From a virus (lineage: Duplodnaviria > Heunggongvirae > Uroviricota > Caudoviricetes), in IMG/VR virus record IMGVR_UViG_3300005613_000033, positions 19,132-83,131 of that record: a stretch of DNA of 64,000 bases; one strand, 5' to 3'. Position 1 is the first letter of the stretch; each line of letters begins with the position of its first letter. The notes under the pieces are model-generated. The model did no database searches. It was not told the origin of the DNA and saw only the letters and a list, made by a program, of their open reading frames with translations. Positions 1 through 60,845 of this stretch are shown here, in pieces. Made by a program: the position numbers and the translations under genes.

Positions 1-1214
1 TGATCCTGAAGAGGGTCAATGATACGCCAAGCTTGCTCGACTTCCTCGGCACTCGTGAAAAGACTCTGGTTGCCGTTGAACGCATCCATGAGTAAGGTCT
101 GGTACGCATCGGGAAAAGCGTCCCCATACTGGAACAACAGATTCTTGTCACCGACAGCGCCCCATCCAGGAACCTTAGCTGTAAAGTGTAGACGGATAGA
201 CTCGTCTGGCTGGAGCTTAATGACCAAGCGATTAGGTGTCGCGTTGTGGAAAATGCTATGGGGCACCTGTTTGAACTGAATCACAATCCGAGTGGTTCGC
301 TCCTTCAATTCTTTACCAGACCGCAAGTAAAACGGCACACCAGTCCACCGCCAATTGTTAATCGTAAGCTTTGCACAACTGAAGGTCGGATTCATAGAAC
401 CGGGATGTACCCCAGGCTCTTGCCGATACCCATCGTATTGACCTTGTAAAGAGTCCTTCAATTGAGGTGCATAAAGCGTCGGAATAGCCTTCAATAATTT
501 CAGTTTCTCGTCCCTAATGTCTTCTAGGCTGCTTGGGGCCTCCATTGCCACTAAAGTAAGCAGTTGAAGTAAGTGGTTTTGGAACATGTCTATCAAAACA
601 CCACTCTGATCGTAATAACCGGCCCGAGACCCGATCCCGCCTGTCTCAGCAGCGGTGATTTGCACATGATCTATATAGTCACGGGTCCAAATGGGTTCAA
701 AGATCGCGTTGGCGAATCGAAACACGAGAAGATTCTGTACAGTTTCTTTCCCCAGGTAGTGGTCGATCCGATAAAGCTGGTCCTCCCGAAAGTAGCGATG
801 AAGTTCTTTGTTCAACGCTTGTGCGGTTTCCAGGTTTGTGCCAAATGGTTTCTCGACAATCAATTTGCGTGGTACAATAGGATGCTTCACACCTTCCATT
901 ATACGGCTCGCTATGGGGCCGTAGAGGTCGGGGTTGACAGCGAGGTAGTAAACCTCACCATCGGGAATCATATCCTTAGTGGCGTCCCCAGGGCAGTAGG
1001 AAAGCAACTGAGAAAACTGTTGCCACTTAGCACCGAGGTCTTGACCTTGAGTAAGGTGTTCAATCCACTCTGCGTCTGTGAAGTTTGTACGGGATACACC
1101 AAAGATACGGATGTTTCCGAGTTTGTTGTTTAACCATAGGTTATACAATGCCGGAATCAATTTGCGGCGTGTTAAATCGCCCGATGCACCAAAGATAACA
1201 ATGTTTCTAGGCAT
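1..1214 (-). CDS. zwf: glucose-6-phosphate dehydrogenase, 3' partial (runs off window start)
   Basis: Hand translation of the minus strand from the ATG at 1214-1212 gives MPRNIVIFGASGDLTRRKLIPALYN (G6PD NADP-binding motif) and later RIDHYLGKE (G6PD active-site signature). The frame stays open to position 1, where the sequence ...EEVEQAWRIIDPLQD is still G6PD-like. Absent from the ORF track because there is no stop in the window. Confidence 0.85.
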   Translation of the reverse strand, partial: MPRNIVIFGASGDLTRRKLIPALYNLWLNNKLGNIRIFGVSRTNFTDAEWIEHLTQGQDLGAKWQQFSQLLSYCPGDATKDMIPDGEVYYLAVNPDLYGPIASRIMEGVKHPIVPRKLIVEKPFGTNLETAQALNKELHRYFREDQLYRIDHYLGKETVQNLLVFRFANAIFEPIWTRDYIDHVQITAAETGGIGSRAGYYDQSGVLIDMFQNHLLQLLTLVAMEAPSSLEDIRDEKLKLLKAIPTLYAPQLKDSLQGQYDGYRQEPGVHPGSMNPTFSCAKLTINNWRWTGVPFYLRSGKELKERTTRIVIQFKQVPHSIFHNATPNRLVIKLQPDESIRLHFTAKVPGWGAVGDKNLLFQYGDAFPDAYQTLLMDAFNGNQSLFTSAEEVEQAWRIIDPLQD

Positions 1215-1689
1215 ATAGCCGCCTTTTTTTCCATTCGATGTACCGTTTATGTGGTAAAACCGCAATATCGAGCGGAATTCCTTCTGCAATCCGGTATGCA
1301 AGGGTTCGATAGACAACTCCACAGCGAGGATCGTCAGCTATGTCTTTGATTCGTAAGTAATCGGTGCCCCAAACATTGTAGACCTTTACAGTCGTGGGGA
1401 CTTCACGTACCGCGTCATACAACGGTATGTCGTCGTACACACGGCGTCGAAGTTTCTCAAAGCTAACCTCACATCGCGCGTCGTTAGCGACATCTTTCAA
1501 GGTGGGATAAGTTTCGTCCCAGACTTGATACCATGAGATATCCGACGCGGTGCGCGCAGCGTCATGGGGCGACCACCCATAAATACGAATCCGTGTCCAG
1601 AGGGTTCGATATGAGACAGCGCAACGCGGGTCACCAGCAAGAGACTGGATTGACCTGTAATTTTGTCCAAAAGCTTGTACGCGGTTCAT
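1207..1689 (-). CDS. small DNA-binding protein with three tandem HTH (NUMOD1-like) repeats
   Basis: 160 aa. Three repeats of the form I/L-x-D/S-[LVI]-A-x-D-[PA]-R-C-x-V-[SV]-[YF]-[RE]-[TK]-L-x-x-R-[IV]. RBS GAGAGGAGC before the ATG at 1689. Its TAG stop (1209-1207) lies 5 nt inside zwf, whose ATG is at 1214. Confidence 0.55.
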   Translation of the reverse strand: MNRVQAFGQNYRSIQSLAGDPRCAVSYRTLWTRIRIYGWSPHDAARTASDISWYQVWDETYPTLKDVANDARCEVSFEKLRRRVYDDIPLYDAVREVPTTVKVYNVWGTDYLRIKDIADDPRCGVVYRTLAYRIAEGIPLDIAVLPHKRYIEWKKRRLYA

Positions 1690-1823
1690 AGGCTCCTCTC
1701 AAAGCTCTACTACAAGTATATCAGATAAAAGCTCAAAAGTCAAGGGATTCTTGGGGAATTTTGAAGAAAAAATGGCATTTTTGTCGGCTAGGACAATGTA
1801 AATCTGTATACAAATCTACCGAA

Positions 1824-1912
1824 GATTGCAATAAAAGTTGCAATCCATGTAGTTTTCCGAATTTTTTCTCGGTTTATAACGATTATTCCGATAGGAGTAT
1901 AAGAAGGAGAAA
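1824..1912 (+). promoter_or_regulatory. conserved upstream cassette copy A (core TTGCAATCCATGTAGTT at 1838-1854, with ...CCGATAGGAGTATAAGAAGGA)
   Basis: ~85 nt element repeated near 57241-57330, 57426-57442 and 57751-57823. It ends 5 nt before the ATG of the gene at 1917. Confidence 0.5.
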
Positions 1913-1916
1913 CTTT

Positions 1917-2456
1917 ATGGGTATACCGAGCCCCGAAAAACGCTGTCAACACGTCAATGACGACGCCCAATGCCCCCTCGAACGGGTAGAAGGGTCAATT
2001 TATTGCCACACTCACGATAGACATGCGCTCAAGCGTCTGGAAGACCAAAAGGTCCGCCAGTACCTCTTGACTGAAGCTCAATACTCGAATCGTCTGGCCG
2101 CCCTCTCGGACCACGACGACATCAAATCACTCCGCGAAGAAATCGCTTTTGCTCGAATGCTCGTCGAGAAGCGATTCAATATGATCCATGACGACGGGGA
2201 TTTGCTCGCGGCTTGCGGTACACTCAATACCCTACTCCTTACAGTCGAGCGTCTGGTAAAGTCCTGCAACCTAGTTGAACGAAATCTCGGCACCCTACTC
2301 TCAAAATCATCAGTCTTGAATCTGGGTCGAGATATCATCCATATCATCGTAGATGAACTCGAAGAGGTTGAAGATAAAGACGAAATTATTGATCGTATTG
2401 GTGACCGCATTATTGCCATCATCATAGAAGCCGGTAAGGACCAGAAGATAGAATAA
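1917..2456 (+). CDS. hypothetical early protein, Cys/His-rich N-terminus (possible zinc ribbon), acidic C-terminus
   Basis: ATG at 1917 preceded by AAGGAG. N-terminus CQHVNDDAQCPLERVEGSIYCHTHDRH. The longer ORF-track start at 1761 only translates the repeated promoter cassette. Confidence 0.55.
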   Translation: MGIPSPEKRCQHVNDDAQCPLERVEGSIYCHTHDRHALKRLEDQKVRQYLLTEAQYSNRLAALSDHDDIKSLREEIAFARMLVEKRFNMIHDDGDLLAACGTLNTLLLTVERLVKSCNLVERNLGTLLSKSSVLNLGRDIIHIIVDELEEVEDKDEIIDRIGDRIIAIIIEAGKDQKIE

Positions 2457-2683
2457 TGACGCCAGACTTAGATTTAGTACCTACTGAAGACCTTTTGAAT
2501 GCTTTGAAGCAGCGTTTTGATGTTTTTGCAATGGTTGGTTTGTTTAATCGCGGTGAAGTCTTAAAAACTGAAGATGTATCTTATGCTTTTCGTGGCGAAC
2601 CGTTTGCTTGTTTGGGGGCGACTCAGTTCCTAGGGGCAAAAATTGAACACTACCTTATGCAAAATATCCAAAACAATGAATAA
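2456..2683 (+). CDS. hypothetical protein (75 aa)
   Basis: ORF with TAATG overlap onto the upstream gene. Confidence 0.4.
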   Translation: MTPDLDLVPTEDLLNALKQRFDVFAMVGLFNRGEVLKTEDVSYAFRGEPFACLGATQFLGAKIEHYLMQNIQNNE

Positions 2684-3050
2684 ACTCTGTGATCTCTTTG
2701 TATTAACCGTTGATCTCTTTTTATTAACCGTTGTAGTCAGTGTCATTATGGCTATTTCAGTTGATTTGCAAGCCAACTTAAATACAAATAGTGCACCAGC
2801 TAGTACGAACATAAGTATTGATCTGCCATCCGACTTCCCAGGGGATTTAAGGGAAAACGGATGGCACTTTTACATTTATAAGGAATCGCGTGGCATTCTT
2901 TGCTACGGAAACCAATGTTTAATAGCACTCCAAATTAACGATTACTATGTTACACCCTGGGGCAACTGTTATTGGCATGCAACAACAGGTTGGCAATTCC
3001 ATGCTGCCAAAGGGCCGATTGGCAATAAACTTGAGGTAGGGGATCTATGA
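2676..3050 (+). CDS. small secreted/membrane Cys-rich protein, paralogue of the next gene
   Basis: ATG at 2676. N-terminal hydrophobic helix LFVLTVDLFLLTVVVSVIMAI. Shares NDYYVTPWGNCYW with NDYMRTPWGNLYW in the 3047 gene. Confidence 0.5.
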   Translation: MNKLCDLFVLTVDLFLLTVVVSVIMAISVDLQANLNTNSAPASTNISIDLPSDFPGDLRENGWHFYIYKESRGILCYGNQCLIALQINDYYVTPWGNCYWHATTGWQFHAAKGPIGNKLEVGDL

Positions 3051-3448
3051 GAAAAGCACTAATGATTTTGACACTCTTAACGGGTTTAGTCACAGTCAGT
3101 GACACCAGCAATGGTGTTGTATGCACTACTACACCGATCATCTACGCAATGGATATCTCCCGCACCTATGAGAGGGGAAATTGGAAGCATTACATTCAAC
3201 ACCTTGTACCACCTGGCGACAGATATCTCTATCAAGGTCATTTGTATTACAAAGGGCGTGAGGTCCAAGATGCAAGGAACTACAATGATTACATGAGGAC
3301 CCCATGGGGGAACTTGTACTGGGTAGGGAAAACACGAGTAACTCGGTATGGTTCACAAGGATGGGTGCGAACACCCAACCTTCGATTTCCCATTGGGCAG
3401 GAAGTATTCCCTACGGAAAACGATTACAACTTTACAGAAAGAGACTAA
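3047..3448 (+). CDS. small secreted protein with signal peptide, paralogue of the previous gene
   Basis: N-terminus MRKALMILTLLTGLVTVS is signal-peptide-like. Shares the TPWGN(C/L)YW motif. ATGA overlap with the previous gene. Confidence 0.55.
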   Translation: MRKALMILTLLTGLVTVSDTSNGVVCTTTPIIYAMDISRTYERGNWKHYIQHLVPPGDRYLYQGHLYYKGREVQDARNYNDYMRTPWGNLYWVGKTRVTRYGSQGWVRTPNLRFPIGQEVFPTENDYNFTERD

Positions 3449-3519
3449 GCCATGCGTCTGACTGGCATTAGTATCATTCTGTTAAGATGGCACAATAATC
3501 CATAATGAAAGGGTAAACA

Positions 3520-3756
3520 ATGGCAGCATATGATCTTACACCTCAAGCGGAAGCGGAAGCGGAAGTTCCTGAGAAGTCTTGGTTCCAGTCCAAGATTATC
3601 TGGGTAAATGGCTTAACGTTGGTGGCTGGTATTATCGGCTACTTAGCTGGTCATGACCTGATTGCAAATAACACAGCTTTAGTTGCTGGTTTAGTCGCAA
3701 TACAAGGTCTTGTAAATACCGGCTTACGATTTGTGACTTACACGAAGATTAGTTAA
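3520..3756 (+). CDS. small two-TM membrane protein (holin-like topology, function unknown)
   Basis: 78 aa with two hydrophobic helices (LTLVAGIIGYLAGHDLI and ALVAGLVAIQGLV). RBS AAAGGG. Confidence 0.45.
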   Translation: MAAYDLTPQAEAEAEVPEKSWFQSKIIWVNGLTLVAGIIGYLAGHDLIANNTALVAGLVAIQGLVNTGLRFVTYTKIS

Positions 3757-3928
3757 GTTAAACAGCAACAATGACCCCTAGTAGGACTACTAATAACATG
3801 GCAGAAGACTCTAATAAAACTACTGACGAACAAGAAAAGAAAAACCTGAAGCGACAAAAGATTCGCTTTGCTCGAAATGATGAGCGTAAACCCCGACGAG
3901 AGCGTCCACGACCCGAAGGAAAGTAACC

Positions 3929-4120
3929 ATGGCTAAAAAGAAGCCAAAGAAATGGATTCAAAAAGCGGGGCTCAAGGAAGGTGCTTTAACTAAACAAGCT
4001 AAAGCGGCCGGATTTTCTAGTTGGAAGGCATATTGTGACCAACCAGCAGAAAAACTTAGCACAACAGCTAAACGACGCTGCAATCTTGCTCGAACTTTAG
4101 GTAAACTAGGAGAGAGATAA
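3929..4120 (+). CDS. small basic protein (63 aa)
   Basis: N-terminus MAKKKPKKW..., lysine-rich. RBS GGAAAG. Followed by a GC hairpin. Confidence 0.4.
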   Translation: MAKKKPKKWIQKAGLKEGALTKQAKAAGFSSWKAYCDQPAEKLSTTAKRRCNLARTLGKLGER

Positions 4121-4141
4121 GCCCTGGATGGGCATGTAGGT

Positions 4142-4173
4142 GGGCGGGTAGCCTTGCCCCAGGCTACCCGCCC
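4142..4173 (+). other. 12-bp GC-rich stem-loop without a U-tract
   Basis: GGGCGGGTAGCC..(8 nt)..GGCTACCCGCCC, immediately after the 3929 gene. Confidence 0.35.
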
Positions 4174-4200
4174 CGGAATGAAACTAGCGAGGGAAAAATC

Positions 4201-5034
4201 ATGTTTAATCGGAAACGCAAACTTATGATGACTGGGATAGCCAGCCTCGTTATTATGGCAGTGCTTGGCTTTTTCAGTTTTCAATATGTTTCAGATCAAT
4301 TTGAGACACCGCCTGTGGTTACCACATCAGTAATGGCACAGAAGAATGTTACAATCTACAGTGGGTTAACGCAGAACCTTGCCGGTGATGAAGCCGAAGT
4401 GATTATTGCAGCACCCGCTGAAGTTAAAATAGGGAAGTTAGTTGTCTTGGATGTTTCTCAGTCTGTTGGCAACAAATTTGAATGGATGGTTGTACCCGAA
4501 ACAGAAGACTTCTTAGTCATTGATGAAGGCCGACGTGCGGTTTTTAGTTCTGGTGTACCTGGTGAATTCATGTTCATCGTGGCCTGCGCTGTAAATGATA
4601 GTGTGAATGTTAAGCGACATGTAGTTCGAGTAATTGGTTCTACACCACCACCCCCAACTCCCGACCCTGAGCCGCCTGTACCACCGGGGCCGGCTACTAC
4701 TTTAAGCAAGAAAATAGGGACATGGTGTACTGGAATACAATCCCCATCTCGATCCAATGATGCAGTTAAGTTAGCTGGTGCCTTCGAGAGTATTGCTGCA
4801 CAAATCGACGCTGGGACATTAACACAGCCTTACGATATTATTACAGCTACAACAGAAGCCAATCGCGCCGCCTTAGGTGAACAACTTCAAGCTTGGATTC
4901 CATTTTTACGGTCCCTGCAAGCGGAGCTAGAACAACGTGCCAACAATGGGCTACTGGTTACACAATCCCAGCATTCGGCCGTGTGGAAGGAGGTTGCTAA
5001 AGGGTTGCGATATTTTGCAACTAGCAAGCAGTAA
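4201..5034 (+). CDS. membrane-anchored protein with Pro-rich linker
   Basis: N-terminal TM segment IASLVIMAVLGFFSF. Linker PPPPTPDPEPPVPPGP. RBS GAGGGAAAAA. Confidence 0.5.
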   Translation: MFNRKRKLMMTGIASLVIMAVLGFFSFQYVSDQFETPPVVTTSVMAQKNVTIYSGLTQNLAGDEAEVIIAAPAEVKIGKLVVLDVSQSVGNKFEWMVVPETEDFLVIDEGRRAVFSSGVPGEFMFIVACAVNDSVNVKRHVVRVIGSTPPPPTPDPEPPVPPGPATTLSKKIGTWCTGIQSPSRSNDAVKLAGAFESIAAQIDAGTLTQPYDIITATTEANRAALGEQLQAWIPFLRSLQAELEQRANNGLLVTQSQHSAVWKEVAKGLRYFATSKQ

Positions 5035-5065
5035 ATCCGCATAAGTAGCATATGGAGATAAGGTA

Positions 5066-8000
5066 ATGTTAAGGCGGGATTTTTTGAAATGGGGATTGGG
5101 TACCACGGCTGGCCTTTCAATGGGCTCGGGCCTTTGGATACCCCCCTGGTTGCAAGCAGCGGATGATACAATTCCAACAGCCGTGCAGGGCGGGTGGATT
5201 GATGACCCCATTATACGAGACCGTTGGGTAAGAACGCAAATAAAACCATATCTAACACAACAAAATAAACAAATCCTCAATACTGGAAAAGGTAAACTTG
5301 TTTGCCTTTGGAAGTATTTTGAGGAAGTGACTGAGTCCCCTCTAGTTCCACACCTTCAAGAAATTGGCGATTGTAAGCAAGCTGGAACCTTGGTTACTAT
5401 GGCAGATGGTAATCGCAAAGAAATTGAACGAATCAAAGTTGGAGAATATGTTTTAAGTCATCTAGGACGACCCCAACGGGTTACTAGAACTATACGTAAA
5501 CCGTTTAAGAAAAGCATGATTCGATTTCAAGCTAAAGGAACTTTTGAAGATGTTGTTTGTACCCCTGACCATCTGATTTTTGTGGGTGGGGGGAAATGGA
5601 AACCAGCAGGGGAGCTTAGTCTCGACGACCATGTCTTTATTCAAAGTTATCGAGGTTCTACAATAAGCAAAACATACGATCTCCTTGATATATGTCCCGA
5701 TGCTGAAATTAGAGACAATAAACTACGAGCCAAACAGAGTTCAAAATGGGTAAATCGTTTTGTACATCTGGATGACCGACTTGCTTATGTTATTGGAGCG
5801 TATCTTGCAGAAGGTGGTTGTAGTAGAGCCCAGGGACCTGAATGGAAGCCTGGTCAATGGTGTAAAGTTGATTTTAACTTAGGACATACTGAAGAAAAAT
5901 TTGCTAATACAATCGCAACTCTTATGCAACAAATCTTTGGTATCGAGTGCCAGGTATATTCAGTACCAAGTAAACCAACTGTAAAGTATGTAAGATGCCA
6001 AAACAAAGCGGTCGCCATGTTTTTCAAGCATCTTATACCAGGTAATACTTATACTAAGGAAGTACCTAAGGATATTCTAGTAGCGTCTAAAGAAATTCAA
6101 CTCAAATGTTTATTTGGATGGTTAGAAGGCGATGGCAGTTGCCCCGGCCGAAAACAATGTAAATCCTTAAAGAAACGTGGTCCATGTTGTTCTGGTACCA
6201 GTGTATCGCGTGAACTTGTTACAGGTATGTTTCGACTTGCTAATACTTGTGGTTTTAATCCAACCATGTCGTTTATAAAAGTTCAAGGGGAGCGGGCTCA
6301 AGCTCAAACTCTTTATTTGGGGGTCGCTGACACAGCCAAATTGTATCCAGGAATATCGAATAAAGTTTATACATACCCTGAAGCTAATCCATATGGATTA
6401 AAACGTAAACTACAATCTGTTTCAACTATCTCAAGAGTAGCTACAACTGTATATTGTATTGATGTTGAAGAAGATCATTCCTTTATAGCCAATGGTTACA
6501 GTGTACATAATTGTGTTAGCCATGCTTTTGGACTAGGTGTGGACATTTTAACCGCAGTTCAGATGCTCATGCTTGGTAAGCCTGAGCGTTGGATTGCTAA
6601 AGCTGCTACTGAGATCATTTATGCCGGTAGTCGCCACGAAGTTGGCGGCGGTAGGATCAAGTACAGTGATGGTTCTATGGGAACTTGGGCCGCAGATTTC
6701 ATCTCACAATGGGGCGTATTACAACGCAAGCGATATCTTGGTGGGCAATACGACTACACAGAATATTCAGGACGGGTAGCTCGCGAACTCGGCAAAAAGG
6801 GAGTCCCCGACCCCTTGGAGCCGCTTTGCAGATTACACCCGGTAAAGACCGTTTCGATCTGTAGGTCATGGAATGAATGCCGCGATGCGATAGCAAACGG
6901 ACACCTCGTTTGCATGTGTAGCAATGTGGGATTCAAGACCCGAGGAGGACGAGATAAAGATGGATTCTTGGCCCCGAGCAGACGACCCTGGATGCACGCG
7001 ATGCTTATCGCAGGTGTGGATGATGCTTTTAAGCGCCCAGGCGGTCTTATAATTAATAGTTGGGGTTGCTTTGATGAACAAACCGAAATTCTTACAGACG
7101 AAGGATGGAAGCTGTTCAAAGACTTAAATGAATCTGAAAAAATAGCTACTTTGAATCAAGAAACACATGAACTTGAATATCAAACCCCCACCTGCTACCA
7201 TCGGTATCCATACAATAGTTATTTATGGCATCATAAATCCAGAGATATAGATTTGGCTATTACACCTAATCATAATTTATATGTGGCTAAACGTGATAAG
7301 CCAGAGAACTGGTTTTTAACTCGGGCTGATGAGTGCCTTCAAACTATTAAAATGAAAAAGGATGCTAATAATTCACGACCCGACAAAGAGATTCATCAAG
7401 TAGGTGATGCTAAAATTCCAATGGACTTGTGGTTAGAATTTCTTGGTTACTTTTTATCCGAAGGGTATACTAGTAAAAATCAATCATATCACCAAGGTGC
7501 AAAAAATGGGATACAGAGAATAGTAGGTATTTGTCAAACTAATCAAGTTAACTACAAGATCATTCGTGCTTGCTTGGACCAATTACCTTTTGATTTTAAT
7601 TCCCATGCCAAATTATTTCTAAATCACACAAGCAAGGATTTACTCACAGAATTACTACCTTTTGGTAAAGCCCATGAAAAATATATCCCTGATTATGTTT
7701 GGGAATGTTCTGCCCGCCAATTGAAAATATTGTATGATGCTTTGATGCTAGGGGATGGATCCATTAGTCAAGGTGATACAGGAATAAAACGAACTTATTA
7801 CACTTCGTCCAAGCAATTGGCTGATGATTTTCAACGTTTACTATTGCATTGTGGTTTCGCTGGTGACATTTCGTATACAGATCGGCGAGGACGTGATAAC
7901 GGAACAGGCGGAATTACTCGACATATTGAGTATCGAATAGGCATTAAGATAAAAGCACTAGAGCAAAATATAACTTACAAACCTATTTTATTACCTTATC

Positions 8001-8239
8001 GAGGTGAAGTATTCTGTGTGACCGTTCCGAATCAAGTTATCTATGTACGTAGAAACGGGCGTGCAGTTTGGGCTGGTAATTCTAACTGGGTTTACGGCCC
8101 AAAACGACACGGGCAACCAGAGGGTTCCTTCTGGGCAGATGCTAGTGTCATTGATCGTGGTTTGAGACAAGGGGACAGTATAGCAATGAGTGCTTACCTT
8201 GGATATCCACGTCTTGATCTGGATTATCGTTTTTGGTAA
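5066..8239 (+). CDS. Tat-signal papain-like (C1-type) cysteine peptidase precursor interrupted by two inteins
   Basis: N-terminus MLRRDFLKWGLGTTAGLSMGSG is a twin-arginine signal (RRxFLK). Extein motifs: QEIGD-[intein1]-CVSHAFG (Gln then Cys, oxyanion/catalytic arrangement) and HAMLIAGVDD...GGLIINSWG-[intein2]-SNW (His and Asn-Ser-Trp-Gly of C1 peptidases). The spliced product would be about 339 aa. Confidence 0.7.
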   Translation: MLRRDFLKWGLGTTAGLSMGSGLWIPPWLQAADDTIPTAVQGGWIDDPIIRDRWVRTQIKPYLTQQNKQILNTGKGKLVCLWKYFEEVTESPLVPHLQEIGDCKQAGTLVTMADGNRKEIERIKVGEYVLSHLGRPQRVTRTIRKPFKKSMIRFQAKGTFEDVVCTPDHLIFVGGGKWKPAGELSLDDHVFIQSYRGSTISKTYDLLDICPDAEIRDNKLRAKQSSKWVNRFVHLDDRLAYVIGAYLAEGGCSRAQGPEWKPGQWCKVDFNLGHTEEKFANTIATLMQQIFGIECQVYSVPSKPTVKYVRCQNKAVAMFFKHLIPGNTYTKEVPKDILVASKEIQLKCLFGWLEGDGSCPGRKQCKSLKKRGPCCSGTSVSRELVTGMFRLANTCGFNPTMSFIKVQGERAQAQTLYLGVADTAKLYPGISNKVYTYPEANPYGLKRKLQSVSTISRVATTVYCIDVEEDHSFIANGYSVHNCVSHAFGLGVDILTAVQMLMLGKPERWIAKAATEIIYAGSRHEVGGGRIKYSDGSMGTWAADFISQWGVLQRKRYLGGQYDYTEYSGRVARELGKKGVPDPLEPLCRLHPVKTVSICRSWNECRDAIANGHLVCMCSNVGFKTRGGRDKDGFLAPSRRPWMHAMLIAGVDDAFKRPGGLIINSWGCFDEQTEILTDEGWKLFKDLNESEKIATLNQETHELEYQTPTCYHRYPYNSYLWHHKSRDIDLAITPNHNLYVAKRDKPENWFLTRADECLQTIKMKKDANNSRPDKEIHQVGDAKIPMDLWLEFLGYFLSEGYTSKNQSYHQGAKNGIQRIVGICQTNQVNYKIIRACLDQLPFDFNSHAKLFLNHTSKDLLTELLPFGKAHEKYIPDYVWECSARQLKILYDALMLGDGSISQGDTGIKRTYYTSSKQLADDFQRLLLHCGFAGDISYTDRRGRDNGTGGITRHIEYRIGIKIKALEQNITYKPILLPYRGEVFCVTVPNQVIYVRRNGRAVWAGNSNWVYGPKRHGQPEGSFWADASVIDRGLRQGDSIAMSAYLGYPRLDLDYRFW
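5372..6511 (+). mobile_element. intein 1 (380 aa) with LAGLIDADG homing endonuclease
   Basis: Block A CKQAGTLVTMADG, block B TPDHLIF, LAGLIDADG motifs LAYVIGAYLAEGG and LFGWLEGDGS, block F VYCIDVEEDHSFIANG, block G SVHN followed by +1 Cys. In frame with the host ORF. Confidence 0.85.
7067..8080 (+). mobile_element. intein 2 (338 aa) with LAGLIDADG homing endonuclease
   Basis: Block A CFDEQTEILTDEG, block B ITPNHNLYV, LAGLIDADG motifs LGYFLSEGY and LYDALMLGDGS, block F VFCVTVPNQVIYVRRNG. Ends ...WAGN (penultimate Gly, not His) with +1 Ser, so the C-terminal boundary is less certain than for intein 1. Confidence 0.7.
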
Positions 8240-8292: not shown

Positions 8293-8991
8293 ATGCGAAT
8301 TTTAGTGGCAATTTTACTTATTCTAACGGTGGGTTTGTACCATGCTGAAGCTAATGAGAAAGGTAATAAGTCTGTTTTGGGGTCTTTGGCGATCCTGGAC
8401 AAAGGGACAGAAAATAGATCTCCCAGAGACAGTGGAGAAGGTAACCGATTTGGGGGAAACTTACTTGGATCATTCCGGCGTACCGCAGCTAGACTCCAAG
8501 AATACGATGGACTCACTCCCAATGGAAACTTCGAGCGAGATGGACTCGACTGGACTCGCAGACCAATTGGCCGACAAACTGGCCCAAAGGAAAGAGGAGC
8601 GAAGGTTGAGGCGCGAGCGAAGGAAATCTGGGAGTGGTCCCAAAAAAAGATCGTAGTCCCTGATTCTGTGAAGAATTATATGATATTCTTCACGATGGAG
8701 GGGTGTGGTGGTTGCAAGCAAATGTATCCTCACATCAAAGATTTACAGAGTCAAGGGTACAAGATTTTTGTTATCTACAACAACGCAAACCAGAAATTGA
8801 TACGGGAACATGCAGTAACAAGCTACCCAACAATGGTTATTTATGATGAGGGGCAGCAAGTTAAAAGATACCGAGGTCCAGTAGCGACAGAAGCCATCAC
8901 CCGATACCTAAATAAGCCTGAAACACCAGACGACCCTGACCGTATACACTATGATTTTGTAGATGGTCCTAACAAATACAAACTGTGGTAA
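8293..8991 (+). CDS. secreted thioredoxin-fold protein
   Basis: Signal peptide MRILVAILLILTVGLYHAEA. Trx-like core FFTMEGCGGCKQMYP ... SYPTMVIYDEGQ (CxxC and cis-Pro loop). RBS GAGGAAAA. Confidence 0.6.
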   Translation: MRILVAILLILTVGLYHAEANEKGNKSVLGSLAILDKGTENRSPRDSGEGNRFGGNLLGSFRRTAARLQEYDGLTPNGNFERDGLDWTRRPIGRQTGPKERGAKVEARAKEIWEWSQKKIVVPDSVKNYMIFFTMEGCGGCKQMYPHIKDLQSQGYKIFVIYNNANQKLIREHAVTSYPTMVIYDEGQQVKRYRGPVATEAITRYLNKPETPDDPDRIHYDFVDGPNKYKLW

Positions 8992-10244: not shown

Positions 10245-11912
10245 ATGAGCAATTTACTAAACGAGCTTGGATTATCTATAGCCGAAGGCTTACGCAGCAA
10301 GACTATTTCAAGCTGTACCAAATGGGCCTCACGACGGCGAATCATGGGCGAAGAGACAGACTTTCCAGGTCCGTTTTCCTTCGATTATCATCCATGGTGC
10401 AAGGAGATTTCCGATTCAACAGCATCGTTCAACACGGCTATGAAGGGAGCGCAATTAGGCGTCACCGAAATCGCTATCAATCGAGCCTTTTATACAATCG
10501 ATGTATTGAAGAAAGCAGTTCTATATGTACTGCCAACTCAAAACAATGCGTCCGACTTTTCAAAGACTCGATTCAATGGGGCATTGCACAATTCCGAATA
10601 CTTAAAGTCCATGTTCACGGATACGAACACAATTGGACTCAAGCAAGCGGGAGCCGTTCCACTATACATCAGAGGATCACGCGGCGACAGCAACCTAAAA
10701 TCCATTCCAGTCTCATATCTGATTTTAGACGAAATGGACGAAATGGATCAACGAGCTATTTGGCTCGCTTTAGAGCGTTTATCTGGTCATATGGAAAAAA
10801 GTGTTTTTGCAATCAGCACACCCACACTTCCAAAGTACGGGATTCACAAGTTATTTCTTAAAGGTACAATGGAAGAATGGACATTCATATGTCCGCACTG
10901 CAATAAATGGACCGAATTAACGTGGCCTGATTGCATTGAGATCCATGGAGAAGACGTAAATGATCCCAAGTGCTCACAATCATTTTTGAAATGTAAAGAG
11001 TGTCAACACCGTTTAGATCATATGATAAAACCTGAGTGGCTTAAAAGTGCGAAATGGCATGTTACAAACCCCGAAGCAGACGACGATCACCGGAGTTTCC
11101 ATGTCAACCAAATGTATTCGTACACTGTATCCCCAGGTGAGCTTGTTGTTGCTTATTTTCGTGGTTTAGGTGATGAAGCAGCGAATGTTGAATTCCATAA
11201 CTCAAAACTTGGTTTGCCATACATCCCAGAAGGTGGGCAAATTACCGATGACATACTCGATAATTGTATATCTAACTACACTACACAAGAGACACGCCCC
11301 TTAGAGAGTGGTCGGTTGATCGTGATGGGAGTTGACCAAGGTAAGTGGCATAACATTGAGATTACGGAATACTTTTTCGATACCTATTCACATGATCTCA
11401 ATGTAGCCGCGACAGCCAAGATTTTATGGACGGGGAAGATATTAGAAGATGAGTTTCCCAGATTAGATGAACTGATGCGTGAGTGGCAAGTCATGCACTG
11501 TGTAATCGACCCAGACCCACAAATCAATGACGCTCGACGCTTTGCCCGTAGATTCCCAGGTTATGTAACTCTTTGTCGATACAGGCGAGGGCAAACTGGA
11601 AAAGAGATTTCGATTCAAGAGGACGAACTAGGGACGCCGATGGCGACTGTAGATCGAACGAATTGGTTAGACGCGGCTTTAGGACGATTTCGATCAAAAC
11701 GAATACTACTGCCACGAGACATTTCCAGAGAATACCGGGAACAACTAAAAGCCCCAATTAGAACATACGAGAGGGACGAAATTGGCAACCCAATTGCAAA
11801 ATACGTGGAAACAGGTCCCGACCACTTTGCTCAAGCACGTTGCTACGCAGAAATTGCATTACCCTTAGCAGCATCGTATGTAACTAACAAGGACATAGCT
11901 GCATTTCTATAA
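10245..11912 (+). CDS. terminase large subunit, lambda GpA-like
   Basis: AMKGAQLGVTEIAIN aligns with the lambda gpA KSARVGYSK ATPase motif. Walker-B-like LILDEMDEMD. Cys cluster CPHCNKW...CKECQHRL. 555 aa. The overlapping frame 10214-10861 is spurious. Confidence 0.7.
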   Translation: MSNLLNELGLSIAEGLRSKTISSCTKWASRRRIMGEETDFPGPFSFDYHPWCKEISDSTASFNTAMKGAQLGVTEIAINRAFYTIDVLKKAVLYVLPTQNNASDFSKTRFNGALHNSEYLKSMFTDTNTIGLKQAGAVPLYIRGSRGDSNLKSIPVSYLILDEMDEMDQRAIWLALERLSGHMEKSVFAISTPTLPKYGIHKLFLKGTMEEWTFICPHCNKWTELTWPDCIEIHGEDVNDPKCSQSFLKCKECQHRLDHMIKPEWLKSAKWHVTNPEADDDHRSFHVNQMYSYTVSPGELVVAYFRGLGDEAANVEFHNSKLGLPYIPEGGQITDDILDNCISNYTTQETRPLESGRLIVMGVDQGKWHNIEITEYFFDTYSHDLNVAATAKILWTGKILEDEFPRLDELMREWQVMHCVIDPDPQINDARRFARRFPGYVTLCRYRRGQTGKEISIQEDELGTPMATVDRTNWLDAALGRFRSKRILLPRDISREYREQLKAPIRTYERDEIGNPIAKYVETGPDHFAQARCYAEIALPLAASYVTNKDIAAFL

Positions 11913-12261: not shown

Positions 12262-14109
12262 ATGGCCACCCCTGCTGCAACCTTTCAAAACTTGGTTTCT
12301 GCTAGGCACCCAGTCTACTTACGTGATTTTGGGCACTGGCAACTTTGGCGAAATACCTACGAGTCTGGTGAATACTATGTGAGTAATTACTTACAAAAGT
12401 TTACCACTCGTGAAGATGATGAGGCTTTCACGGCGAGAAAGTCCATCACTCCGATTCCCGCCTTTGCTAAAGCAGCAATCAATGACGTTCGGAATTCAAT
12501 TTTCCAACGACTACGCGATGCTCTCCGTAAAGGAGGTTCACAGACCTACAAATATTCTGTCCAAGGTTTGGAAGGTGGCGTTGATATGCGTGGTTCCAGT
12601 ATGGACAAGTTTATGGGTGTCGATATCTTAACAGAATTACTTGTTATGGGGCGAGTAGGTTGTTATGTAGATATGCCCGTAGCTACCCCTAGCTTTTCTG
12701 TTGAGGCTAGTCTTGCCGATACCATGGAACAACGCCCGTATCTCTATATGTACCCAGTCGAAGATATTCTTTCTTGGACATGTAGTAATCCCAGTAAACC
12801 AGAGGAATTTCAATCATTATTACTGCGTGATCGTTGCACGACTTTCAAACAACCAGGTGGTTATCAAGTTCGTATCCCCGATGGTAATTATGAACGATTT
12901 AGATTGGTTTGGATCAATCAAGAAACAGGAAGGGTCAATGTTCAATTTTTTGATCCTCAGGGGATGCCTATTGATAGGGACACTGGTTTACCAACAGCCG
13001 ACGAACCTATTGAACTCGAATTAACTAAAATCCCGTTCTGTCTTTTAGATATAGGTGATAGCCTACTGAAAGACGTTTGTAGACACCAAATTGCGTTATT
13101 GAATTTAGGTTCAAGTGATGTAGCATACGCATTGAAAGCGAATTATCCTTTTTATATTGAGCAACGAGATTTACGCGCTGTCGGAGACCATCTTAAACAT
13201 GCAACTAATCCTGATGGTACGGCAACAGCCGGTGGTCAAGGGGCTAAAGATGAAGAGATTCAAGTAGGGGCGACTCAGGGCCGTGCTTACGATATGAAGA
13301 TGGAAGCTCCATCATTTATTCATCCGTCCCCAGAGCCATTAGAGGCATCAATAAAGTTGCAAGAAAAACTTGAGGACGATATTCGTAAATTGGTCCAACT
13401 TGCTATTCAAAATAAAGTAGGTAAACGAGTATCTCCCGAATCAAAAGAAATGGATAATCAAGGTTTGGAAGCTGGATTATCTTTTATTGGGCTTATACTT
13501 GAAGGAGCCGAAAGACGGTTAGCTGAATTCTGGGCGGCTTACGAAGAACGTAAGCCACGTAAACGCCTTATCGCCACAATAAAATATCCTGATCGGTATA
13601 GTCTAAAGACTGACAGGGATCGTATTGAAGAAGCTACAAAAGTTGCTGAACTCATGTATACTGTGCCAGGAGCTACAGTTAAACGTGAACTAGCAAAGAA
13701 CATTGTAGAAACTCTTTTAAGTGGAAAAACTACCGTTGAAACTTTAGACAAAATCTATAGGGAAGTATCTACCGCTAATTATACAACTAGTGACCCCGAT
13801 ACCGTTATTAGGGCCATGGAGGCAGGGTTGTGTGGGGAGCAGACTGCGTCAATAGCCCTTGGATTCAGTGAGAATGAATACCTCCAGGCTCGAAAGGATC
13901 ACATGGAACGTATTCTACGTATTAAAGAAGCCCAATCATCTGGCGATGAGGAGGACAATATACGGGAGGGAGCCCGTGGTGTAAACGACTTATCTGCTGA
14001 TCCGGCCCACGAAGGTAGGGAAGAAAAAGAAGAAAGTCGTGACACAACCCTGAGTGATTCTGTAGACAAACCCGTTCGCGGTAAAGGCCGCGACAAGCAA
14101 ACTGATTAG
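12262..14109 (+). CDS. putative portal protein
   Basis: 615 aa, immediately after the terminase region. Acidic C-terminal tail. RBS GAGGTG. Called from position and size only. Confidence 0.5.
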   Translation: MATPAATFQNLVSARHPVYLRDFGHWQLWRNTYESGEYYVSNYLQKFTTREDDEAFTARKSITPIPAFAKAAINDVRNSIFQRLRDALRKGGSQTYKYSVQGLEGGVDMRGSSMDKFMGVDILTELLVMGRVGCYVDMPVATPSFSVEASLADTMEQRPYLYMYPVEDILSWTCSNPSKPEEFQSLLLRDRCTTFKQPGGYQVRIPDGNYERFRLVWINQETGRVNVQFFDPQGMPIDRDTGLPTADEPIELELTKIPFCLLDIGDSLLKDVCRHQIALLNLGSSDVAYALKANYPFYIEQRDLRAVGDHLKHATNPDGTATAGGQGAKDEEIQVGATQGRAYDMKMEAPSFIHPSPEPLEASIKLQEKLEDDIRKLVQLAIQNKVGKRVSPESKEMDNQGLEAGLSFIGLILEGAERRLAEFWAAYEERKPRKRLIATIKYPDRYSLKTDRDRIEEATKVAELMYTVPGATVKRELAKNIVETLLSGKTTVETLDKIYREVSTANYTTSDPDTVIRAMEAGLCGEQTASIALGFSENEYLQARKDHMERILRIKEAQSSGDEEDNIREGARGVNDLSADPAHEGREEKEESRDTTLSDSVDKPVRGKGRDKQTD

Positions 14110-23740: not shown

Positions 23741-24652
23741 ATGAATTTTGATCTTTATCTTTCGACAATTGAATTCGGTCTGTATGATAGTGATAATCCA
23801 GCAGGTGATCTGGCAGCGAGTGATCCAGCAGGTGATTTAGCAGGTAGTGAGCCAGCAGGCGCGCCCTCGGGGGCTCCGGCCGGAGGTTCGGTACCTATTG
23901 ACCCTAGTGCTGGGGCTAGCGATGGCACTGGTGGAAAGGTATTTTCACAAGACGATGTAAACCGTATTGTACAAGACCGTCTCGCTAAGGACAGAAAGAC
24001 ACAAGAACAGAAATACCGAGACTTGGAAGGGGAATACAAAACACTTTTGGAAAATCAGTCACTTTCGACCGATCAACGTGAGAAGTTGGAGAGTGAACTG
24101 GAAGATATCCAAAAGCGATTCCGTACCAAGGAACAACAACTAGCACATGAAAAGAGACAGATCGAAGAGCGCCTGTCGGGCGAACTTGAAACCTATAAGA
24201 CCGCCGCAATCGAATGGGAGAACAAGTACAAGACATCTGTAACTGATCGTGCTTTAATCGACGCGGCAACTGGTGGCGAAGCTTTCAACCCCACTCAAGT
24301 AGTGGCCCTTCTTCGTCCTATGACGAAGATGATGGAAGCAAAGGGACCAGATGGTCAGCCAACAGGGCAATTAGTTCCTATGCTCGACTTCCCAGACGTG
24401 AATGAGGCAGGGGAACCAGTGATGACACAACGAACCCCAGATGAAGCTGTTAAGAGGATGAAAGAAATACCTGAACAGTATGGAAATCTCTTCAAATCTA
24501 ATGTCGTTAGCGGCATCGGAGCGGGTTCCGCTACCGGGGGCGTTACTCCGGGTTCTGCTGGACGGATTGATGTACGGAAGCTCACACCTGAGCAATACAT
24601 GAAGATTAGGAAGGAAAACCCAAGCCTTCTTGGTCTGAAGCCGAGCAGCTAA
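23741..24652 (+). CDS. putative scaffolding protein
   Basis: Low-complexity Ala/Gly/Pro N-terminus, long predicted coiled coil (EQKYRDLEGEYKTLLENQ...KRQIEERLSGELETYK), directly upstream of the major capsid gene. RBS AGGAG. Confidence 0.5.
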   Translation: MNFDLYLSTIEFGLYDSDNPAGDLAASDPAGDLAGSEPAGAPSGAPAGGSVPIDPSAGASDGTGGKVFSQDDVNRIVQDRLAKDRKTQEQKYRDLEGEYKTLLENQSLSTDQREKLESELEDIQKRFRTKEQQLAHEKRQIEERLSGELETYKTAAIEWENKYKTSVTDRALIDAATGGEAFNPTQVVALLRPMTKMMEAKGPDGQPTGQLVPMLDFPDVNEAGEPVMTQRTPDEAVKRMKEIPEQYGNLFKSNVVSGIGAGSATGGVTPGSAGRIDVRKLTPEQYMKIRKENPSLLGLKPSS

Positions 24653-24709
24653 ACATTGGGGTATTCGTTTAACTACAAATCTGTAACTAACTCCTACAGG
24701 AGACCTAAG

Positions 24710-26113
24710 ATGAATTTTTATCTTTCACAAGCAATGGTCGCCTTGTATGACAACGACAACAGCGCTTTCATTCCCGAGCTTTGGGCGATGGAAGGTCTGC
24801 ATATTCTCGAAGAGAATATGGTAATGGCAAATTTGGTCCGTCGTGACTTTTCGCCCAAGATTGCCAACTATGGTGACGTTGTAAATACTCGTCGACCGGG
24901 AACTTTCGCTACACGGCGTAAGACCGACTCGGATTCAATCGAGCTTCAAGATGCTCGTGCGACTAACGTGCAGGTTCCTCTGAATCAGCACATGTACATC
25001 TCCTTCACCATCAAAGACGGTGAAGCAAGTAAATCCTTCCAGGAACTCGTGGATATCTACCTGTTGCCAGGTATGATGGGTATCGCTCGTGGTATTGATC
25101 GTGCTATTCTCGGTGCAGCTCCCGATTTCTTGGCCAACAAGGTTGGTAAACTTGGTGCTCTGAGTGCGCTCAATGCCAAGGATTACTTACTGGAAGCCCG
25201 TGAGACGATGAATGAGAATCTCGCGTTCCCAGAAAGCCGCAACTGCGTACTGGCCCCGTCTGCTGAGACGGCAATGCTCAAGACAGAAATGTTCTTGAAG
25301 GCCAACGAGCGTGGTGATGGTGGTCGTGCTCTGCGTGAAGCGGCCCTCGGTCGTGTACTCGGATTCGATACGTGGATGGATCAGAACGTTTCTGGTCTGA
25401 ATGCTGTTGATCTTGACACAGCACCGGGTGAATTGACAACCGGTTACGCGGCAGGTCATGCTGCAAACATGGCGATTGATCTGGACCCTGATTATATCGC
25501 CAGCGTAGGCGAGTTCTGTGTAATCTCCAGCGACGGTCAGCCGACTGCTCTGTCGGTTGCATCGTCTAATGCAGGCGACACTGACGTGATCGCCCTGGAC
25601 GCTGCTTTGAAGTATGCGGTTTCCGCTAATGATCCTATCACCGTATACAAGAAGTGTGCGATTGATAACGTTGGTGGTTACGCGGCTGGTTGGACCAAGG
25701 GAATTAACCTTGATTCCTTCACGGCTGGCAAGCATCCTCGCGTTGGTCAAATCCTCAAGATCGGTGCGGCAACGTATGTCGTAATCGAGTCCGAGGATAA
25801 TAGTGGTGACCGTATGGTCTGGCTAGATCGTCCTCTGGAAGCTGCTGTACTTGACGGTGCGGACGTATTTCCAGGCCCCGCTGGTTCATTTAACCTTTGC
25901 TTCCATCGCGATGCTATCGCTCTGGTCAGTCGTCCGTTGGCTCTGCCTGCTGGCGCACTCGGCGTGCGTTCGCAGGTTGGTGTGTACAACAATGTTGCAA
26001 TGCGTGTTACCATGCAATACGACATTACCTCTCAAGGTACCGTTGTCACACTCGACATTCTGTGTGGTGTGAAGACATTGGATGAGCGCCTCGGTTGCGT
26101 GCTGCTTGGTTAA
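24710..26113 (+). CDS. putative major capsid protein
   Basis: 467 aa. ATG at 24710 with RBS CAGGAG. Follows the scaffold-like gene and is followed by the strongest terminator in the window. The ORF-track start at 24656 lacks an RBS. Confidence 0.55.
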   Translation: MNFYLSQAMVALYDNDNSAFIPELWAMEGLHILEENMVMANLVRRDFSPKIANYGDVVNTRRPGTFATRRKTDSDSIELQDARATNVQVPLNQHMYISFTIKDGEASKSFQELVDIYLLPGMMGIARGIDRAILGAAPDFLANKVGKLGALSALNAKDYLLEARETMNENLAFPESRNCVLAPSAETAMLKTEMFLKANERGDGGRALREAALGRVLGFDTWMDQNVSGLNAVDLDTAPGELTTGYAAGHAANMAIDLDPDYIASVGEFCVISSDGQPTALSVASSNAGDTDVIALDAALKYAVSANDPITVYKKCAIDNVGGYAAGWTKGINLDSFTAGKHPRVGQILKIGAATYVVIESEDNSGDRMVWLDRPLEAAVLDGADVFPGPAGSFNLCFHRDAIALVSRPLALPAGALGVRSQVGVYNNVAMRVTMQYDITSQGTVVTLDILCGVKTLDERLGCVLLG

Positions 26114-40716: not shown

Positions 40717-40761
40717 AGTTGGTTAGGGAAGCCCTTGTAGGGCTTCCCGGCCAACTCTTTT
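40717..40761. terminator. bidirectional hairpin terminator between convergent genes
   Basis: GGGAAGCCC-TTGTA-GGGCTTCCC with outer GTTGG/CCAAC pairing and a T-run on the plus side. Lies between the 40158 gene (+) and the HNH gene (-). Confidence 0.55.
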
Positions 40762-41278
40762 AGTCTATATATTCCCAACCATAACCACCTGTTGTTTTAC
40801 GACGCCCATTACAAACATTCCAGATGTTACTATGCGGGCATCCAGTTTCTTCTGCCGCAATACTCATGTTAATAAATTCAACACCATCTGATCTTCTAAC
40901 AGATCGACCACCATGTGTACCATCTCGACGTTTATCAAAACCATCTTCACTTTTTGTCCCATAACAGAGATTAGAAACTGAATTATCTGATATTCCATTA
41001 GGACCATGTCGAATTACACACCCCTCAAAAGGGCCAATTAACCAAGCATTAGCGACAAGATGATGAACATAATGAGTTTTCTTAATACCTTCTTTTGATA
41101 ATCTTAATACAAGATAACCACTTGTGGCTGCGGGTATAAGCTTTAGAATTTTACCCCTCCAATTACGGAATCCACCTTTAGAGTGGCGAATAATCCGATC
41201 AACTGACCTGACACGACCTAAGTTGCTAACTTCGTAATAACCCTCATAATTAACAACATCTTTCCATTGTTCGTCCAT
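40760..41278 (-). CDS. HNH homing endonuclease (NUMOD4 N-terminus + HNH_3)
   Basis: N-terminus MDEQWKDVVNYEGYYEVSNLGRVRS (NUMOD4-like). HHLVANAWL...RHGPNG...DNSVSNL (HNH). Paralogue of 56637-57206. Opposite strand, inside the tail operon. Confidence 0.85.
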   Translation of the reverse strand: MDEQWKDVVNYEGYYEVSNLGRVRSVDRIIRHSKGGFRNWRGKILKLIPAATSGYLVLRLSKEGIKKTHYVHHLVANAWLIGPFEGCVIRHGPNGISDNSVSNLCYGTKSEDGFDKRRDGTHGGRSVRRSDGVEFINMSIAAEETGCPHSNIWNVCNGRRKTTGGYGWEYID

Positions 41279-53115: not shown

Positions 53116-53354
53116 TCAGGGTCTCCTAATTTGTTCATCTTGCAAGCTCGTCTCCAAGATTGCAGATTACCTTGTTGTGTATTGAAGTTTCTTTCGGCTG
53201 CCCATTCATTGAAAGCAGCTACGAGTTTATCACGCTGGTATCCACCTCCTATGATAATAGGAGATGGTGACTCAATCAAATGAAGTAATAAGTCTGCAAA
53301 CCCGCCCGCTATAAACTGTCTCTCATCATCCTGGAGTTTATCCTCCATTACCAA
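53112..53354 (-). CDS. hypothetical protein (80 aa)
   Basis: ORF with 4-nt overlap, inside the replication operon. Confidence 0.35.
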   Translation of the reverse strand: MVMEDKLQDDERQFIAGGFADLLLHLIESPSPIIIGGGYQRDKLVAAFNEWAAERNFNTQQGNLQSWRRACKMNKLGDPE

Positions 53355-60638: not shown

Positions 60639-60711
60639 AGTGGGATAGAGCAGTGGTTAGCTCGGCGGCCTCATAAGTCGCAGGTCGAGGGTTCAAATCC
60701 CTCTCCCACCA
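60639..60711 (+). tRNA. tRNA with CAU anticodon (Met or Ile2-type)
   Basis: Hand-folded cloverleaf: D arm GAGC/AGUGGUUA/GCUC, anticodon loop CUCAUAA, T arm GAGGG/UUCAAAU/CCCUC. No encoded CCA. 1:72 apparently unpaired, so the boundaries are approximate. Confidence 0.65.
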
Positions 60712-60722
60712 TTTCGATTTAT

Positions 60723-60795
60723 AGCGGGGTGGAGCAGTGGTTAGCTTGTCGGTCTCATACGCCGAAGGTCGGAGGTTCAAATCCTTCCCCCGCAA
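60723..60795 (+). tRNA. second tRNA with CAU anticodon
   Basis: Anticodon arm UCGGU/CUCAUAC/GCCGA, T loop UUCAAAU. Boundaries approximate. Confidence 0.6.
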
Positions 60796-60845
60796 CTTAT
60801 CGTGTCCATGTTAAGCTAGTCCTGACGCAGAGGAGAAGGAATAAG

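Follow-up and report, generated by a model that had tools for sequence, protein, structure and literature searches.

What is a gene for glucose-6-phosphate dehydrogenase (G6PD), zwf, doing in the genome of a tailed phage, and why is it joined there to a gene for a small protein built of repeats? The DNA analysed, hereafter the window, is a 64,000-nt stretch of a Caudoviricetes virus (IMG/VR record IMGVR_UViG_3300005613_000033, positions 19,132 to 83,131), whose left end holds a leftward zwf preceded by a gene for a 160-amino-acid (aa) repeat protein. Virus-encoded zwf is a textbook case of a phage redirecting host carbon metabolism, and its role in the supply of reduced nicotinamide adenine dinucleotide phosphate (NADPH) and deoxynucleoside triphosphates (dNTPs) is established for cyanophages; to our knowledge, nearly all known cases are T4-like cyanophages. 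We find that the zwf in the window is very probably a phage-borne metabolic gene, that it appears to form a viral lineage distinct from cyanophage Zwf, and that it overlaps the repeat gene in every contig of its clade.

A G6PD gene that runs off the edge of the window

The genes in question and their junction are:
1..1214, minus strand: 5' part of zwf (404 of 436 codons), from translation and Pfam G6PD_N plus G6PD_C
1207..1689, minus strand: repeat gene, 160 aa, three repeats of ~50 aa, from the open reading frame (ORF) list, repeat alignment and a repeat hidden Markov model (HMM)
1207..1214, minus strand: start/stop overlap of 8 nt, ATGCCTAG, from the sequence

The initial annotation had recognised a zwf-like gene with the RIDHYLGKE active-site motif, and had attributed its absence from the ORF list to the window edge. 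Both points hold. The minus-strand frame at 1..1214 gives 404 stop-free codons, with MPRNIVIFGASGDLTRRKLIPALY as the first residues, and is open to the left edge; zwf is absent from the ORF list because it leaves the window there, its last 32 codons lying past the edge. The RIDHYLGKE motif occupies aa 149-157 (770..744), and the part of the protein within the window matches G6PD_N (2e-45) and G6PD_C (8.4e-93) in order, as well as phrog_4941 'dehydrogenase' (3.3e-130) in PHROGs.

The complete gene was found on a contig of the European Nucleotide Archive (ENA), L001, which is 100% identical to window 1..7056 and reaches 8.8 kb further left. It encodes 436 aa (L001:5843-7153), and with 479.1 bits the product exceeds the cut-off (400.6) of the NCBIfam equivalog TIGR00871 zwf. 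All catalytic and cofactor motifs are kept: GASGDL (GxxGDL), EKPFG (EKPxG), RIDHYLGKE and QNHLLQ (His). Among solved structures, the best match is 9emm (E = 2.6e-113), with which the arginine that contacts the NADP 2'-phosphate, after beta-2, can be aligned (GVSRT in the phage enzyme versus GFARR). As judged by these motifs, the enzyme is a compact and catalytically complete G6PD. In two relatives (L006:3978-5267 and L008:1249-2544), GMALD or GTALD stands in place of GVSRT, the segment that carries the 2'-phosphate arginine; this is the kind of change that moves Rossmann enzymes to NAD, and a cofactor switch is possible in these proteins.

zwf lies among phage genes

The source DNA is that of a tailed double-stranded DNA phage. 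To the right of zwf, the window encodes:
10245-11912: large terminase, lambda gpA-type domains
12262-14109: portal
23741-24652: scaffold protein
24656-26113: P22-type coat protein
36087-40133: tape measure
53883-56621, minus strand: primase

An exonuclease, a NUMOD4-HNH endonuclease and a ParB-like protein are also encoded. To the left of zwf, the genes on L001 are tightly packed in one orientation throughout, in the order SDR epimerase/dehydratase, small ORFs, XPRT-like phosphoribosyltransferase and guanosine monophosphate (GMP) reductase (L001:10110-11129; NF003470, 467.9 bits, cut-off 397), beyond which lie an HNH+HTH_38 endonuclease, an NT5C-like nucleotidase and an R2K ATP-grasp protein. 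Within the window and its 8.8-kb left extension, viral genes are therefore found on either side of zwf. This synteny is kept on both sides in contigs from other samples: L003 (50 kb), L005, L006, L007, L008 and L010/L097, a 61-kb IMG/VR contig.

On L001 the gene next to zwf is that of the SDR epimerase/dehydratase (L001:7314-8264, some 1.5-2.4 kb to the left of the window), which is conserved in all relatives. The best match of its product is dTDP-glucose 4,6-dehydratase, far under the cut-off, and its substrate may be a sugar nucleotide that stems from glucose phosphate.

The repeat gene and zwf are coupled throughout the clade

The zwf ATG lies at 1214..1212 and the TAG of the repeat gene at 1209..1207, which places the A of the start codon 5 nt before the T of the stop codon, exactly the spacing given in the initial annotation. 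No convincing Shine-Dalgarno sequence of its own was found for zwf in the window, L003 or L005, and because of this, translation of zwf by termination-reinitiation would fit the arrangement. Since the stop of the repeat gene overlaps the start of zwf, the two are likely to be co-translated.

The coupling is conserved. In 8/8 distinct contigs of the G6PD clade, the repeat gene is directly upstream of zwf and overlaps it, orthologues of the 160-aa protein being present in the 7 contigs other than the window's own. The overlap takes the form ATGCCTAA in L003 and L005, and measures 16 nt in L006, L007 and L008 and 8 nt in L011, where the variant of the repeat protein has two repeats only. In L008, the repeat protein had been called too short; its true ATG is at L008:773. 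Insertions occur after zwf, as a 225-aa ORF in L003 and as a 218-aa ORF plus a NUMOD4-HNH gene in L005, and none separates the repeat gene from zwf among the relatives. In the relatives the zwf stop also overlaps the next gene, and no terminator-like site separating the operon genes was found.

Both genes are under purifying selection. For the repeat gene, the nonsynonymous (dN) and synonymous (dS) divergences are 0.10 and 0.77 between L005 and L003, and 0.057 and 0.257 between L007 and L008; dN/dS in these less saturated pairs is about 0.13-0.22. For zwf, several pairs gave dN of 0.10-0.27, with dS above 1.4 or saturated, and the dN of the repeat gene is about 2.5x that of zwf. The zwf gene is accordingly one that related viruses, represented by 8 contigs, have kept under selection. 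The repeat was found at 0/79 other viral G6PD loci and at 0/80 viral GMP-reductase loci; the link between repeat and zwf is lineage-specific.

A conserved, putative control region precedes the pair

Upstream of the repeat gene, the following elements were recognised:
1693..1700, minus strand: Shine-Dalgarno-like purine-rich tract GAGAGGAG, upstream of the repeat-gene ATG (1689..1687)
1715..1745, minus strand: sigma-70-like promoter of the leftward operon, CCTTGACT-17 nt-(TG)-TATACT, from a promoter scan
1690..1916, no strand: divergent intergenic control region, 227 bp, from alignments with relatives and inverted repeats

In the promoter scan, the site at 1745..1715 (TTGACT, 17 nt, TG, TATACT) showed 10/12 matches plus the TG extension, and it is the sole match in the window to CCTTGAC-N16-18-TAKAMT, with 0 expected by chance. 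TTGAC and TAnAnT recur in each of the five relatives aligned, and L007/L008 have them in duplicate. The GAGAGGAG tract has the counterpart GAGAGG in L003. Together with the 8-nt overlap and the absence of a terminator-like site, this single conserved promoter-like site upstream bears out the proposal that zwf and the repeat gene form an operon.

The region 1690..1916 divides the leftward metabolic operon from a rightward operon that leads to the structural genes. Its mean column identity to L003 is 89%, versus 77-87% DNA identity for the flanking homologous segments. It contains conserved blocks, among them a near-palindrome around GTATAC at 1798-1819 and a block at about 1861-1900. A search of 1640-1960 for three direct repeats as a candidate operator found none. 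The region also holds a perfect inverted repeat, GATTGCAA-N6-TTGCAATC (1824-1845, plus strand), which had been flagged as terminator-like and was dropped as a functional element, being conserved in neither L003 nor L005.

The repeat belongs to an unnamed family that accompanies homing endonucleases

The three units of the 160-aa protein are:
1689..1531, minus strand: R1, aa 1-53
1530..1381, minus strand: R2, aa 54-103
1380..1210, minus strand: R3, aa 104-160, with the stop at 1209..1207

The initial annotation had described them as three NUMOD1-like helix-turn-helix (HTH) repeats. That there are three repeats was borne out: in the alignment, the positions A..D.RC.V....L..R...A are invariant across all three, and the repeat HMM found three domains in the protein (i-E about 1e-26 each) and none in other ORFs of the window. 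The assignment to NUMOD1 (PF07453) was not, as this family matched neither the protein nor its single repeats at E<=10, nor ten relatives at E<=1, nor 89 relatives at E<=0.001. The HTH fold was likewise not demonstrated; an AlphaFold model gives each repeat a beta-hairpin and three helices, and no fold match was obtained for the protein. Searches of Pfam and NCBIfam with the whole protein and with single repeats at E<=10 returned nothing bar a meaningless DUF7501 match (0.08-0.15), phmmer and profile searches of PDB sequences were empty, and tblastn of the protein against 50,697 GenBank phages gave no match. In PHROGs, the 160-aa protein matches phrog_1065 weakly (E = 0.00099). The protein is basic (pI 9.25). 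Repeats are 72% identical to their positional orthologues versus 27-35% to their sister repeats, and since each is nearer its positional orthologue than its sisters, the three units appear to be individually constrained.

The family came to light only when 1.84 billion cluster representatives were searched exhaustively in HMMER with the repeat profile; a word-index homologue search gave one relative with the 160-aa protein and none with the repeat profile. The family numbers 1064 proteins at E<=1e-3 and 67 at E<=1e-30, which carry 2 to 25 tandem copies with a median repeat spacing of 53 aa and are publicly annotated as 'hypothetical protein'. The largest is P0002, with 1537 aa. Partner domains among 89 relatives include GIY-YIG (6), REase_MTES_1575 (3), PVL_ORF50, HTH_23, Cse1, PIN_5 and Exc; in P0050 and P0144, an N-terminal GIY-YIG domain is followed by C-terminal repeats. 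The same 89 proteins match phrog_1065 (77), phrog_3377 'HNH endonuclease' (70), phrog_3190 (60), phrog_4160 (27) and phrog_201 (27), plus several 'homing endonuclease' families. The repeat thus recurs attached to the catalytic domains of homing endonucleases. Arrays that stand alone in proteins of <=200 aa account for 18 of the best 150 representatives, and the stand-alone three-repeat proteins P0061 and P0062 come from unrelated phage contexts.

On these sequence comparisons, the repeat is a separate, unnamed family and a module that accompanies homing endonucleases, and it presumably binds DNA. A label of nuclease-associated DNA-binding module would fit the earlier NUMOD1-like idea in spirit only. 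Among the family members P0002, P0003 and P0121, the arrays reach 25 copies, and in a Streptomyces protein the repeat follows a type I-E Cse1/CasA as a C-terminal fusion. Neither Pfam nor public annotation has a name for the family.

The phage G6PD forms a lineage of its own and points to a probable planctomycete host

The nearest relatives of the phage G6PD are five short (429-436 aa) metagenomic proteins with 66-85% identity, all on related phage contigs. Next come enzymes of about 484 aa with 48-51% identity; most of those with a named source come from Planctomycetota (Pirellulales, Thermoguttaceae, Botrimarina, Aureliella) and a few from Chloroflexi. The identity to cyanophage Zwf is about 42%. 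At least 580 IMG/VR contigs carry a G6PD, and only one of them belongs to the clade; among the best 80 matches listed, the other 79 are 39-43% identical. A scan of viral contigs with the single G6PD as query gave no relative, and an alignment-based scan gave one.

Since the phage G6PD is about 51% identical to Planctomycetota enzymes and about 42% identical to cyanophage Zwf, its clade is best described, on sequence identity, as a second viral zwf lineage, distinct from that of the cyanophages. Compared with Planctomycetota G6PDs, it has lost a 7-aa loop, a few short loops, a 7-aa C-terminal tail and, from the stretch that links the YxxGD and YYLA strands, two segments of 8 aa (about 16 aa together). 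As cyanophage Zwf is compact too, a shared origin of the two was considered. It is disfavoured: the deletions coincide only in part and the identity is below that to Planctomycetota enzymes, which together favour independent streamlining. An acquisition separate from that of cyanophage zwf, followed by streamlining, is thus the likely history.

The GMP reductase has its nearest cellular homologues, at 56-62% identity, overwhelmingly in metagenome-assembled genomes of Planctomycetota (Isosphaeraceae, Planctomycetaceae, Pirellulaceae and Thermoguttaceae; loci L177-L256). As two independently acquired genes, G6PD and GMP reductase, both point to this phylum, the phage probably infects a member of the Planctomycetota, a phylum for which we know of very few phages.

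A model for the operon

The explanation that we favour, and consider reasonably probable as a whole, is that the pair belongs to an early operon, where a regulator that binds DNA is translated together with G6PD, and that this enzyme produces NADPH and feeds purine salvage. In this model, window 1..1916 would be the start of a leftward early/metabolic operon, in which the conserved sigma-70-type promoter at 1745..1715 would drive expression of the basic 160-aa protein. That protein would be a nuclease-free array of homing-endonuclease targeting modules that binds DNA, and it may regulate, or autoregulate, the divergent control region, in a placement like that of cro or cI. A homing-endonuclease DNA-binding domain doubles as a transcriptional autorepressor in I-TevI. 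We hold this regulatory role more tentatively than the model as a whole; it is a possibility rather than an expectation.

G6PD, co-translated with the regulator through the ATGCCTAG overlap, would oxidise glucose-6-phosphate and push host carbon into the oxidative pentose-phosphate pathway. The output would be NADPH and, with host enzymes, ribose-5-phosphate and phosphoribosyl pyrophosphate (PRPP). The predicted consumers lie in the same operon, namely the NADPH-dependent GMP reductase and the XPRT-like phosphoribosyltransferase, which would use PRPP; a nucleotidase is also encoded. The likely purpose would be to fuel and rebalance the purine nucleotide supply for phage DNA synthesis, because GMP reductase, the XPRT-like enzyme and the nucleotidase share the operon and a thioredoxin-domain protein is encoded in the window. 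The GC content of the phage is 43.5%, and if the host were a GC-richer planctomycete, conversion of GMP to inosine monophosphate would, speculatively, help to rebalance purines. The thioredoxin-domain protein (232 aa, the domain being C-terminal; window 8293-8991, plus strand) is encoded just upstream of the terminase region and is kept in L003/L004; it possibly consumes NADPH-derived reducing power.

Alternative explanations

The window stops within zwf, and the GC contents of zwf (48.6%) and the repeat gene (49.9%) exceed the 43.5% of the window; both observations would suit a host gene at a prophage-host junction, a possibility raised by the initial annotation, or a chimeric assembly, with zwf outside the phage. 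Leftward extension of the contig had been set beforehand as the test, and it yielded phage and metabolic genes: L001 continues for 8.8 kb past zwf with co-oriented phage-type genes, among them the HNH endonuclease, and this extension contains no host chromosome, integrase, att-type tRNA or housekeeping genes. The same synteny appears in independent assemblies from several samples, including the 61-kb IMG/VR contig. No copy of the repeat protein, and hence of the repeat/zwf pair, was found in a pattern scan of one genome per species for 185,579 species, and no cellular enzyme shares more than about 51% identity with the phage G6PD. For the DNA covered, the window and its left extension, we therefore reject the junction, and regard a location of zwf outside the phage as very improbable.

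The nature of the repeat protein allows more doubt. The repeat is typical of GIY-YIG and HNH endonucleases, the phages are rich in HNH endonucleases and inteins and, in L003 and L005, have variable insertions immediately behind zwf, a two-repeat variant exists, and the repeat gene evolves faster than zwf at nonsynonymous sites, all of which could describe a decaying homing-endonuclease remnant that has lost its nuclease and its function, its overlap with zwf being incidental. Such a remnant would not be expected to keep its reading frame intact in 8/8 contigs down to 45% amino-acid identity, nor to show the dN/dS reported above; its N- and C-terminal segments, repeat order, promoter, Shine-Dalgarno tract and overlap are all conserved, and similar stand-alone arrays recur among the family representatives, so that we consider this origin unlikely. 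The strict coupling in every member of the G6PD clade, which favours stoichiometric co-production, and the lack in the phage G6PD of several surface loops and the C-terminal tail of cellular enzymes would instead suit a partner or regulator of G6PD, functionally like cyanobacterial OpcA, rather than a DNA binder. Outside this lineage, however, family members are fused to nucleases or stand alone beside unrelated genes without zwf, other viral G6PD loci lack the repeat, and the protein resembles neither OpcA nor any other known family; a G6PD partner is in our estimate rather improbable. The DNA-binding regulator co-translated with G6PD remains the explanation that we prefer.

Other genes of the window and its relatives

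An ORF of 1057 aa at window 5066-8239 (plus strand), with a TAT-type signal peptide, encodes a 338-aa protein split by two inteins (about aa 103-482 and 668-1005, with Hint/Intein_splicing and LAGLIDADG_3 matches); its L003 orthologue (5626-6642) is without inteins, and the extein segments are 75-90% identical. Genes for NUMOD4+HNH_3 homing endonucleases were identified at window 56637-57206 (minus strand; Pfam), L003:13576-14529, L005:6685-7206 and L005:13079-13594, and a further one at window 40760-41278 (minus strand) is suggested by DNA similarity to the L003 HNH gene alone. HNH positions differ between the related phages, one lying directly downstream of zwf in L005. The lineage is one rich in mobile endonucleases.

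Adjoining the primase gene, window 53338-53886 (minus strand) encodes a 182-aa protein with the N-terminal domain of a dATP/dGTP diphosphohydrolase (PF18909, MazZ-like, 1.2e-21). MazZ-like enzymes are part of purine-modification (2-aminoadenine) pathways in some phages; the window ORFs that were scanned included none like PurZ. The MazZ-like protein, GMP reductase and XPRT-like enzyme together suggest unusual purine handling. Near the right end of the window lie two adjacent tRNA-Met (CAT) genes and a tRNA-Thr (TGT) gene (60639-60796 and 63671-63746, plus strand).

Comparison with known systems and significance

Like the zwf of T4-like cyanomyoviruses such as S-SM2, where it stands beside gnd, the gene described here is a virus-encoded G6PD with all catalytic motifs that is shorter than its cellular homologues and presumably boosts the oxidative pentose-phosphate pathway, giving NADPH for nucleotide synthesis. 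The viral G6PDs that we found were mostly of the cyanophage type, in agreement with the initial annotation, which had placed viral pentose-phosphate genes mainly in cyanophages. The window differs from the cyanophage cassette in the affinity of its G6PD, nearer the Planctomycetota enzymes, and in its operon partners, which are the repeat protein, the SDR protein, the XPRT-like protein and GMP reductase. Pairing with a repeat protein instead of gnd had been noted as unusual, and tblastn with S-SM2 Gnd indeed gave no match in the window or its relatives (no search was made for talC or cp12). The phage itself, with lambda-gpA-type terminase domains, a P22-type coat and a tape-measure protein, contrasts with a T4-like myovirus. 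Viral contigs commonly encode GMP reductase (428 relatives found), and zwf lay within 10 kb of it at 0/80 of the loci taken from these relatives.

For phages whose predicted hosts are purple sulfur bacteria, G6PD genes have also been reported, with a role in NADPH/dNTP supply (PMC11041744). There too the G6PD is of a non-cyanophage type, has a shorter chain than the host enzyme and groups with the phylum of the presumed host; the host phylum and the G6PD lineage are different ones, and no repeat-protein partner is described there (PMC11041744). Because a non-cyanophage viral zwf has already been reported, the present one is less of a surprise. Viral zwf itself was known, and what is new is the G6PD lineage, the likely host phylum, the operon context and a conserved, unexplained partner.

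That partner resembles NUMOD1/I-TevI-type modules in being a short module of a beta-hairpin followed by helices, arranged in tandem and, within its family, attached to GIY-YIG or HNH domains. It differs in having no Pfam match, in its D-P-R-C-x-V loop and third helix, and, in the window, in the lack of a nuclease domain. PHROG families 1065, 3377, 3190, 4160 and 201 (unknown function, 'HNH endonuclease', PVL ORF50-like) share the repeat as a common element; these families either lack characterisation or take their name from the nuclease domain, and none is linked to zwf. We can imagine that the unit AFGxxYxS...DPRCxV...L..R...GW..E.A is a modular DNA-reading repeat, each copy of which would read a short sub-site, reused both for endonuclease targeting and in a nuclease-free regulator coupled to G6PD, or alternatively that the repeat protein binds and controls G6PD; we offer this as a long shot.

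The locus appears to represent a second lineage of viral G6PD, which was acquired independently and is carried by a tailed phage of another type, in a metabolic setting of a purine-salvage XPRT-like enzyme, NADPH-dependent GMP reductase and an SDR protein rather than photosynthesis or Calvin-cycle genes. This suggests that the supply of NADPH and PRPP is a general viral need and not a speciality of cyanophages. The most novel element is the repeat family rather than zwf, as the partner protein points to a large unnamed family of >1000 representatives that may constitute a modular DNA-binding unit. If the modular-repeat reading were true, the phage would set the dose of an NADPH/purine-supply module through the coupling of this protein to G6PD.

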